DNA from: a virus
Taxonomy: Duplodnaviria; Heunggongvirae; Uroviricota; Caudoviricetes
Virus record (IMG/VR): IMGVR_UViG_2778261066_000004
Direction: 5' to 3' (one strand)
DNA length: 10,212 bases
Shown: piece by piece, positions 6,465 to 7,915 of the stretch
How the letters are laid out: each line of letters begins with the position of its first letter
How positions within the stretch are numbered: position 1 is the first letter of the stretch
Position numbers and translations under genes: made by a program
The notes under the pieces: generated by a model
Seen by the model: the letters and a program-made list of their open reading frames with translations, nothing else
Told to the model about the DNA's origin: nothing
Databases searched by the model: none

Positions 6465-6969
6465 ACAGGTTTGTGAGGCTCTGGATGCCTGGGTATGCCG
6501 ACCAGGAATGACACAGGAGCAGGCGACGATATTAATCACGGAAGCATTCTGGGCTCTGAAAGAACGCCCGAACATCGATGTTCAACGCGTCACGTTTAAT
6601 GATGGCGAGGTTGATCAACGGGCGTTGGGCGTTAACCGGGTGAAGATATTCGAACGCTGGAAAGCTATCGACACCAGGGATAAGCGGGAAAAATTCACGG
6701 CGCTGATTCCGGCAATTATGGAGGCTATCCGGATCAGCGATTTCAGGTTGTATTGTGAAATTACTGACGGAAAAAGCATTACGTACATGATCGCCGGGTT
6801 AAACAAAGAATATGGTGATGTGGTGGAGTCCGGGCTGCTTTTTGCGGATCCATCTGTTGTGGAACGTGAGACTGACGAGCTTATAGAAAAAGCTATTGCT
6901 TTCAAGCATGCGTATCGTCAGCAATACCAACAAAAAGCTGGATGGAATTATGAGCCTTCTTTTTGCTGA
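6448..6969 (+). CDS. YdaT-like protein (CII-analogue / putative toxin family); assignment tentative
   Basis: 173-aa ORF overlapping the Cro-like stop by 17 nt, in the position of lambda cII / Rac ydaT. The 'KFTALIPAIMEAI' segment resembles what I recall of YdaT; not verifiable here. Confidence 0.7.
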   Translation: MKITPEQVCEALDAWVCRPGMTQEQATILITEAFWALKERPNIDVQRVTFNDGEVDQRALGVNRVKIFERWKAIDTRDKREKFTALIPAIMEAIRISDFRLYCEITDGKSITYMIAGLNKEYGDVVESGLLFADPSVVERETDELIEKAIAFKHAYRQQYQQKAGWNYEPSFC

Positions 6970-7915
6970 ACGCCCACTGGTTATAAACACACAGCTTGCG
7001 ATGAAGATTGGCTTAAATGAAGCCATTGTGTTGCAGCAGTTGCATTACTGGTTGAGAGATACCAGTTCCGGTATGGAATGTGACGGGGTTCGCTGGATTT
7101 ATAACACAACAGAACAATGGCTGGAACAGTTCCCGTTCTGGTCAGAGTCAACGTTAAAACGCGCATTTGCAAGTCTGAAAACGCTGGGGCTTTTGCGTTG
7201 CGAAAAGCTCAACAAATCAAAGCGTGATATGACTAATTTTTACACGATTAATTACGAGAGTGAGCTTTTAGATGGTGGCAAAGTGAGCGAATCCATCAGG
7301 TCAAAATGCGCCGCTCCATCGGGTCAAAATGACACGATGGAAGAGGTCAAAATGGCACGCTCCATTGGTTCAAAACGACCCAATGTCATCGGGTCAAAAT
7401 GGCCTGATGATCTTACAGAGAATACAACAGAGATTACTACAGAGAATAAAAACACTTCTCGTCCGGAAGCTTCGCAACCGGACCCGCAGACGGCTGAACA
7501 GGATTTTTTAACCCGACACCCTGACGCGGTTGTGTTCAGTGCGAAAAAACGCCAGTGGGGAAGTCAGGAAGATTTGGCGTGCGCACAGTGGATCTGGGGA
7601 CGAATCGTGAGTCTTTACGAGCAGGCTGCCAGCGATGATGGCGAGATCACGCGACCGAAAGAACCAAACTGGACCGCATGGGCCAATGACGTGCGCACAA
7701 TGCGGATGCTGGATGGCAGAAGCCACAGACAAATTTGCGAAATGTTTGGTCGGGTACAGCGAGATCCATTCTGGGTAAAAAACATCATGAGCCCGTTAAA
7801 GCTTCGCGAAAAATGGGACGACCTGGTCATCCGCCTGGGGCGTTCACCTGTACAGTGTTGTGTGAATCATATTTCTGAACCGGATACCGAAATTCCGCCT
7901 GGTTTCAGGGGATAA
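6950..7915 (+). CDS. Replication initiator (O-like) with DnaT-like C-terminal domain; contains the origin iterons
   Basis: ATG 6950 (MSLLFAERPL…) overlaps the YdaT-like gene end; the ORF track's 6896 start is TTG. C-terminus …VNHISEPDTEIPPGFRG resembles the C-terminus of E. coli primosomal protein DnaT (…SEPDSQIPPGFRG, recalled). The middle of the gene carries five ~23-bp direct repeats. Confidence 0.85.
   Translation: MSLLFAERPLVINTQLAMKIGLNEAIVLQQLHYWLRDTSSGMECDGVRWIYNTTEQWLEQFPFWSESTLKRAFASLKTLGLLRCEKLNKSKRDMTNFYTINYESELLDGGKVSESIRSKCAAPSGQNDTMEEVKMARSIGSKRPNVIGSKWPDDLTENTTEITTENKNTSRPEASQPDPQTAEQDFLTRHPDAVVFSAKKRQWGSQEDLACAQWIWGRIVSLYEQAASDDGEITRPKEPNWTAWANDVRTMRMLDGRSHRQICEMFGRVQRDPFWVKNIMSPLKLREKWDDLVIRLGRSPVQCCVNHISEPDTEIPPGFRG
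7293..7402. repeat. Replication origin iterons: five direct repeats of (T)CCATC(G/A)GGTCAAAATG at ~23-bp spacing
   Basis: Copies at 7293-7309, 7316-7332, 7344-7355 (partial), 7362-7378 (variant ggttcaaaacg), 7388-7402; embedded in the O-like reading frame as lambda ori is in gene O. Confidence 0.65.
7411..7460. other. A+T-rich candidate DNA-unwinding element next to the iterons, with three ACAGAGA(A/T)T repeats
   Basis: 'tacagagaatacaacagagattactacagagaataaaaac' directly follows the last iteron. Confidence 0.45.

Follow-up and report, generated by a model that had tools for sequence, protein, structure and literature searches.

In phage lambda the gene of the initiator protein O contains the origin of replication (ori-lambda) and is followed by the partner gene P, P22-type modules pair an initiator with a DnaB-type helicase, and a category of "initiator-solo" phage replication modules with a single replication gene is said to go back to Weigel & Seitz 2006. 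In Escherichia coli, the gene of DnaT, a component of the restart primosome, forms an operon with dnaC. How DnaB-DnaC is recruited by the PriA-PriB-DnaT preprimosome was described in 2026 as not known (PMC13377028), and the function of DnaT residues 154-179 is undefined (PMC4132743). Here we describe a replication initiator gene encoded in a 10,212-nucleotide stretch of viral DNA of the class Caudoviricetes (IMG/VR record IMGVR_UViG_2778261066_000004; the whole stretch is referred to below as the window). There is nothing unusual about the element, which belongs to a common and known kind of lambda-type initiator with internal origin and is found in about one third of complete E. coli genomes. 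Its interesting part is a link between a short DnaT-like C-terminal tail and genes of DnaC type, which provides a concrete lead on the question of recruitment. Searches of a limited collection of papers found no mention of the PPGFRG motif in this context, of its link to DnaC, or of YdaU/YdaV replication.

Much of the lambda layout recurs at this locus. As in lambda, the putative origin lies within the initiator gene, in the linker between two domains, with four to five dyad-symmetric iterons that have a central A-tract and a spacing of ~23 bp and are followed by an A-rich block; the gene order (cro, cII-like gene, O, then a gene in the ren position) is the same, and the C-terminal domains are homologous. 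Lambda O has LDLTNTDWIYGVDL at its end and P as the next gene, whereas the window initiator carries a DnaT-like tail and has no P. With E. coli DnaT it shares the last 17 residues, including the invariant IPxGFRG end, and in relatives a dnaC-type gene comes directly after the tail-bearing one, as in the dnaT-dnaC operon; on the other hand, neither the N-terminal domain of DnaT nor its acidic linker nor its DNA-binding domain (PF17948) has a homologous part in the initiator, and DnaT has neither iterons nor a sequence-specific DNA-binding domain and works at forks via PriA and PriB.

Two further systems are close. In the Rac prophage, YdaU (DUF1376) ends ...VNTVSLPDSAIPPGFRG, the replication genes are followed by a DUF977 gene (ydaW), and the ydaS/ydaT-like layout of the early operon is the same; Rac differs in that YdaU combines a DUF1376 N-domain with a different C-terminal region, and in that the DnaC paralogue YdaV is retained between initiator and DUF977 gene, where the window has none. 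DopC, found in Cellvibrionales and Oceanospirillales, joins an O-like helix-turn-helix (HTH) N-terminus to a "DnaT C-terminal motif" that replaces the usual O C-terminus, and a dnaT-dnaC parallel was drawn for DopC-DopE (Brezellec et al. 2017, PMC5509034). DopC is encoded on the chromosome, lacks iterons, is not an origin and has a P-like partner, DopE, whereas the window initiator keeps the lambda-O C-terminal domain, has iterons and lacks a partner gene. P22-type modules resemble it in having an N-terminal origin-binding domain and a partner-specific C-terminal end, and differ in that their initiators end ...VREGxxDDx with a DnaB-family gene next. The initiator gene of the window and its parts are the following.

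6950-7915, plus strand: replication initiator gene, lambda-O-like, 321 aa, PHROG 391; shares its first 20 nt with the end of the cII/YdaT-like gene
6989-7255, plus strand: N-terminal winged-helix domain, aa ~14-102, presumed iteron-binding
7294-7409, no strand assigned: five 23-bp iterons with the core CATCGGGTCAAAATG, partly dyad-symmetric, aa 115-154
7410-7460, no strand assigned: A-rich block of low stability with 12-bp repeats inside, presumed unwinding element
7487-7840, plus strand: C-terminal helical domain, aa ~180-297, homologous by alignment to the lambda O C-terminal domain
7862-7912, plus strand: DnaT-like C-terminal tail VNHISEPDTEIPPGFRG, aa 305-321, predicted disordered

The initiator's end and that of DnaT from E. 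coli K-12 (MG1655), VNTVSEPDSQIPPGFRG, are identical at 13 of 17 positions (pairwise E 3e-07), so that the statement in the first-pass annotation of this DNA that DnaT ends in a near-identical peptide was correct; the PDB entries for this comparison are 2ru8, 6aep and 9zbt. Six residues are invariant in 14 enterobacterial DnaT sequences (I173, P174, G176, F177, R178 and G179), and all six are present in the initiator tail. The annotation had gone further and proposed a DnaT-like domain that mimics the host primosome. This does not hold, since the C-terminal domain is of lambda-O type and alignment of the C-terminus to DnaT is significant in the tail only. The NCBIfam DnaT model (NF002770) gives the initiator 14.2 bits against a cut-off of 201 and matches at profile positions 162-179 only; the Pfam model of the three-helix DNA-binding domain of DnaT (PF17948) has no match in the full initiator protein, and BLASTP of the initiator against DnaT detects no similarity outside the tail. 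A 34-sequence profile of the C-terminal domain, tail excluded, found no DnaT in PDB, and hhalign of that domain against an alignment of 14 DnaT sequences returned a probability of 0.14%. As far as such comparisons reach, the similarity to DnaT is limited to the last 17 residues. A recent transfer of the tail from host dnaT is ruled out at the DNA level, where only 38 of 57 nt are identical to the dnaT 3' end. The differences are mostly synonymous, and divergence at synonymous sites with the peptide kept indicates that selection maintains it in both genes.

The same tail is found on proteins of several kinds, namely those with a lambda-O-type C-domain (the window gene, that of Shigella phage SfIV and others), with Phg_2220_C (Klebsiella phage ST147-VIM1phi7.2, ending ...DVDYSVPAGFRS), the DUF1376 protein YdaU, and DnaT, and other members of the lambda-O C-domain family, lambda O among them, end differently. 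The E. coli K-12 Rac ydaU among the collected loci (L396:2620-3477), followed by YdaV and YdaW, has a product ending ...RQVNTVSLPDSAIPPGFRG, which nearly matches the end of DnaT; the resemblance of YdaU to DnaT may go beyond the tail, because their BLASTP match spans ~80 residues (E 9e-09). One 347-aa protein (P0172) ends in two tandem copies of the tail motif (...YSIPKGFRGHDENEGYRGFGSPQKHVSDDVETEIPHGFRG).

The way an initiator ends was found to go together with the gene that follows it. For an initiator-seeded sample of 346 IMG/VR loci, which cover several initiator types and reach 3 kb or more beyond the initiator, C-termini and downstream genes were classified; a first scan of IMG/VR with the C-terminal-domain profile had yielded 80 near-identical SfIV-type loci, and other seeds were added. 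Tail-bearing initiators accounted for 198 loci and tail-less ones for 148. Directly after 61 of the 198, at +3 bp, stands a gene of the IstB_IS21/DnaA-type AAA+ class whose product is 48-50% identical to E. coli DnaC, and the remaining 137 have no replication gene next, their neighbours being PerC, Dam, RusA, KilA-N, DUF968, ParB-HTH, DndB or DUF977 genes. Neither P nor a DnaB-type helicase followed a tail-bearing initiator at any of the 198 loci. Among the tail-less initiators, 59 are followed by a DnaB-family helicase, all of them ending ...VREGxxDDx, 12 by a lambda-P homologue, with ends of an NTDW-type motif, and 77 by no recognised replication gene; dnaC followed none of the 148.

The converse sample gave an even simpler picture. 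From 80 IMG/VR loci fetched by a DnaC-like protein, 79 of which have an upstream ORF (open reading frame), every one of the 79 upstream products has [ST]xPDxxIPxGF[RK]G at its end, with 2-6 bp left to the start of the dnaC-like gene. By their N-termini these products form 13 clusters (Phage_rep_O, HTH_36/DnaD_N, DUF1376, several that no Pfam model covers, and DnaT), the regions preceding the tail are of at least four mutually unrelated kinds, and the set includes both Rac YdaU-YdaV and dnaT-dnaC itself. It also includes a locus (L426) whose initiator is 94% identical to that of the window and is followed 7 bp downstream by a 248-aa DnaC-like ORF, and a junction of this type occurs in 970 of 5,426 E. 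coli genomes. In such relatives the dnaC-like gene sits between initiator and DUF977 gene, and the Rac order, ydaU - ydaV (dnaC-like) - ydaW (DUF977), is the same. The named tail-bearing initiators are all from Enterobacteriaceae, the group in which DnaC and DnaT are found. Co-occurrence of the tail with DnaC-type loader genes across many unrelated initiators suggests that DnaC-DnaB is recruited directly, and the presence of the tail beside a DnaC-type gene at 79 of 79 loci, together with its retention on phages without a loader, makes a contact between tail and DnaC a specific and cheap hypothesis.

Lambdoid initiators in general seem to carry a C-terminal "tail code". Ends associated with P read ...LD[FL]xNTDW[AI]xG[LV].. 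or HWNDxxxWENxFL, with a Phage_lambda_P gene next at once (lambda O, L395:387-1286, included), and for ends of the form VREGxxDDx the very next gene is that of a DnaB-family helicase; the loci at which the code was seen are L395:387-1286, L091-L101 and L102-L170. A further group of loader-less initiators (L262-L325, from seed P0160) has acidic ends with Trp or Phe (...DRSDWVDE, ...DSSDRFDD) and PerC-like genes next. An initiator of the lambda-O C-domain family at L089:3438-4490 has a P-type-like end, HWNSAEAWENTL, and no P, with an MT-A70 methyltransferase among the downstream genes. The 90%-identity cluster of a 323-aa tail-bearing initiator (P0122) also lists 246-aa DnaC-like "ATP-binding proteins", a mixture presumably bridged by gene calls fused over the 2-bp gap between initiator and dnaC.

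The window initiator belongs to the loader-less group. Searches with tblastn on both strands of the window found no homologue of P, DnaC or DnaB, in agreement with the annotated absence of a P/DnaC-like loader gene after the initiator, and the absence extends to functional phages. In the complete 45-kb genome of HannyBb, with 90 genes, neither the annotation nor tblastn searches seeded with DnaB, P and DnaC reveal a helicase, a loader or a primase, so that the initiator is the only replication gene of this phage, as in an initiator-solo module; the initiator neighbourhoods of PhiR42_1 and SfIV are likewise without helicase, loader and primase. The gene that follows in the window had been described as a 135-aa unknown; the length stands, and a family can be assigned, DUF977/Ren-like. 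The possibility that DUF977 is a hidden loader was rejected, as PerC, Dam, ParB-HTH or DndB replaces it in other loader-less tail modules and lambda has ren at this place.

The initiator protein gives an end-to-end match to PHROG 391, "replication initiation O-like" (9.4e-94). Its closest protein is from Escherichia albertii (97% identity), and a 95%-identical protein is present in phages PhiR42_1, mEp460_ev081 and HannyBb, where the records name it "replication protein O" or "Primosomal protein I". In the AF2 layout, a winged-helix N-domain (aa 14-102) is joined by a disordered linker (aa 106-177) to a helical C-domain (aa 183-295). Residues 135-270 of lambda O align with aa ~147-294 of the initiator (BLASTP, 34% identity, E 7e-27), by which its C-terminal domain is identified as the lambda-O C-terminal domain. 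Pfam and NCBIfam searches with the full protein assigned no family to the N-terminal domain, which the annotation had taken for origin-binding: neither Phage_rep_O (PF04492), for which lambda O scores 5.7e-36, nor any other Pfam model matches at E<=0.01, although the fold is a winged helix as in initiators.

Within the linker-coding DNA lie five direct repeats of ~23 bp, for which the annotated range 7293-7402 was essentially right; as measured, the copies occupy 7294-7316, 7317-7339, 7340-7362, 7363-7385 and 7387-7409 (spacing 23/23/23/24), and TRF calls a repeat of period 23 over 7279-7401. The 15-nt core has 4 in-phase matches at <=3 mismatches, a count of 4 against 0.47 expected in the whole window that was reached by none of 200 shuffles. 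Three copies show strong dyad symmetry, with 16-18 of 23 positions self-complementary, and the iterons share the design of the lambda iteron (ATCCCTCAAAACGAGGGA), symmetric arms around a central CAAAA. Directly 3' of them, a 12-bp repeat is present in 2.8 copies (7415-7448) within the A-rich block. The adjacent A+T-rich repeat block of the annotation is thus present, and the lowest duplex stability over 40 nt anywhere in the ORF falls within it (-44.3 kcal/mol; window mean -53.4 +/- 4.3; among the 2% least stable of the window), while its A+T content is raised only modestly (68% vs a window mean of 54.5%); A alone makes up 47% of the top strand there. The ORF does encode the repetitive peptide that had been noted, SIRSKCAAPSGQNDTMEEVKMARSIGSKRPNVIGSKW...TENTTEITTEN, predicted to be disordered (aa 106-177).

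Several observations bear on a function of these repeats in cis. The annotated iterons of lambda lie at the equivalent place in O, between its two domains. In comparison with the gene of Klebsiella phage ST147-VIM1phi7.2, whose initiator has the same type of N-domain and is 62% identical in protein, third codon positions are 85% identical over iterons and A-rich block vs 54% over the N-domain, and the DNA of the A-rich block is 93% identical. The iterons are kept in relatives, the same repeats occurring in the isolated or induced phages HannyBb, PhiR42_1 and mEp460. SfIV has the same C-terminal domain with an unrelated N-domain (HTH_36), and its repeats at the equivalent place are unlike those of the window, with a 15-bp period and the sequence GTCAAAATCTGACxC. 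Because of this linker position, the co-variation seen in SfIV, the constraint at synonymous sites and the presence in real phages, the repeat block is taken as the origin. That the gene is a replication initiator holding its own iteron origin in the layout of lambda O and ori-lambda, as first annotated, is well supported by these comparisons and very probably right.

Natural variants of the block were also observed. The 290-aa E. coli homologues P0020-P0023 lack exactly the 31 codons (93 bp) between iterons 1 and 5, equivalent to window 7294-7386, which leaves one iteron. The deletion looks like recombination between repeats, and prophages with these single-iteron variants may be origin-defective.

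We infer from this anatomy a pathway in which the winged-helix N-domain would bind the five 23-bp iterons and the resulting nucleoprotein complex would open the adjoining A-rich segment, the least stable of the gene. The lambda-O-type C-domain and the flexible 17-residue tail (...SEPDTEIPPGFRG) would then bring in the replicative helicase. Most conjecturally of all, the tail would do so by docking a DnaC-type loader, a phage DnaC paralogue where one is encoded and otherwise host DnaC within the DnaB-DnaC complex; host DnaC is proposed because P, DnaC and DnaB are missing from the phage. If the tail docks host DnaC, the PriA pathway is not needed. A contact between the end of an initiator and the product of the next gene would, by analogy, be supported by lambda O-P and by the other partner-specific tails. 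Taken as a whole, the model of an internal origin, iteron binding, unwinding and docking of host DnaC-DnaB by the tail is reasonably likely. A wider proposal is plausible and more tentative: [ST]xPDxxIPxGF[RK]G may be a portable DnaC-docking motif used by unrelated phage initiators, by loader-less phages and by DnaT at restart forks, dnaT-dnaC may be a domesticated phage initiator-loader pair, and the tail code may read NTDW for P, VREGxxDD for a phage DnaB-type helicase and IPxGFRG for DnaC.

Other explanations would account for part of these observations. The first-pass annotation had the tail mimic DnaT so as to plug the initiator into the PriA-PriB restart primosome, with the origin firing via the host PriA/DnaT pathway. 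The 13 of 17 identical residues and the lack of a loader gene would fit, and PriA, PriB and single-stranded DNA (ssDNA) are the established partners of DnaT (PMC13377028). However, the parts of DnaT that touch PriA (C-terminal domain, 84-153) and PriB (acidic linker, D66/D70) or that oligomerise (N-terminal domain) have no counterpart here, the DnaT cryo-electron microscopy model was built from residues 84-153 with the tail not described, and this route leaves unexplained why the tail pairs with DnaC-type loaders and why P- and DnaB-type modules have other tails. Dependence on the pathway was probably wrongly assigned, and mimicry of this kind is unlikely. Somewhat less unlikely is that the tail binds host DnaB itself or ssDNA, or drives cooperative self-assembly on unwound DNA, with only an indirect relation to the dnaC neighbourhood. 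After removal of DnaT 154-179 the Kd for ssDNA is 27 uM instead of ~10 uM and the Hill coefficient is reduced (PMC4132743), and a DnaB-binding peptide would co-occur with DnaC-type loaders too, since these act on DnaB. Yet P-type modules also use host DnaB and have a different tail, and the tail is short, acidic then hydrophobic, predicted to be disordered and invariant at its end, features of protein docking rather than DNA binding. A role in ssDNA binding or cooperativity, additional or alternative to docking, is possible.

It is far less probable that the loader-less arrangement is a decayed, replication-incompetent module that lost dnaC, with repeats that are merely coding and have no function in cis. 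Such a history could be read from the 94%-identical initiator that does have a dnaC-like gene and from variants with iterons collapsed to one copy (P0020). Against it, the ORF is intact, the iterons are extra-conserved at synonymous sites, and the loader-less module is carried by isolated or induced phages (HannyBb, PhiR42_1 and mEp460, with SfIV and SfII for the sister type); moreover, the initiator-to-DUF977 junction is found in 1,917 of 5,426 complete E. coli genomes (35%). As HannyBb, PhiR42_1 and SfIV are alike and the junction is so frequent, the loader-less state is not one of decay.

Docking of DnaC by the tail has its own difficulties. The association between tail and DnaC is genomic and not physical, and co-occurrence is no proof of contact; tail and dnaC could partly travel as one recombination cassette. 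The loci are not independent in phylogeny, most of the counts coming from a few module types, and since all DnaC-like genes sampled are close to the enterobacterial one (47-54% identity with E. coli DnaC), what is shown of the association applies to enterobacterial phages only. It is the N-terminal domain of DnaT, not the tail, that was proposed as the likely recruiter of DnaB/DnaC (PMC13377028), and weaker, less cooperative ssDNA binding is the only effect reported for removal of DnaT 154-179 (PMC4132743). DopC, in which a "DnaT_C" motif is joined with a P-like partner, is a possible counter-example (PMC5509034).

If docking of DnaC by the tail is true, it would explain how helicase loading is achieved by "single-gene" lambdoid replication modules. 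It also suggests that an exchangeable terminal peptide, and not the globular C-terminal domain, sets loader specificity in mosaic phage initiators. Annotation would gain as well, as the RefSeq name at the coordinates of the initiator is still "hypothetical protein".

The window as a whole represents a lambdoid prophage's early region, to which E. coli prophages inserted next to yccA are ~92% identical. ORF calling was mechanical, and gave the initiator a longer frame from TTG 6896; the start at ATG 6950 matches homologues and the RefSeq annotation, so that the gene boundaries 6950-7915 were correctly placed from the outset. Around the initiator the following genes were recognised.

279-1298, minus strand: integrase
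1608-4043, minus strand: 811-aa exonuclease
5749-6156, minus strand: DicA/cI-type repressor
6234-6464, plus strand: cro
6448-6969, plus strand: cII/YdaT-like gene, upstream of the initiator in the same rightward operon
7956-8363, plus strand: DUF977/Ren-like gene, 135 aa (Pfam DUF977, 1.7e-29; PHROG 142), directly 3' of the initiator
8732-9763, plus strand: SIR2-like gene, 343 aa (Pfam SIR2_2, 1e-05), in nin-region position

A scan for promoters and terminators around the initiator gene gave no signal above that of shuffled sequences. In some records (P0004, P0005 and P0007) a single 448-aa product joins the YdaT/cII-like gene to the initiator; the fusion is probably a frameshift or calling artefact, because the two genes overlap by 20 nt (6950-6969) in the window. 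The SIR2-like gene is preceded by a 370-bp gap with promoter-like sites, and its product has weak PADLOC matches to Aga_SIR2 and PDC-S21, beyond which PADLOC reported nothing for the genes near the initiator; it is a candidate prophage-borne defence gene. The 811-aa "exonuclease" shows a partial match to exodeoxyribonuclease VIII (255 bits against a cut-off of 1269) and an Rv2179c-like 3'-5' exoribonuclease domain at aa 637-778, and its coding sequence contains a tandem repeat of 21 bp at 2437-2511.

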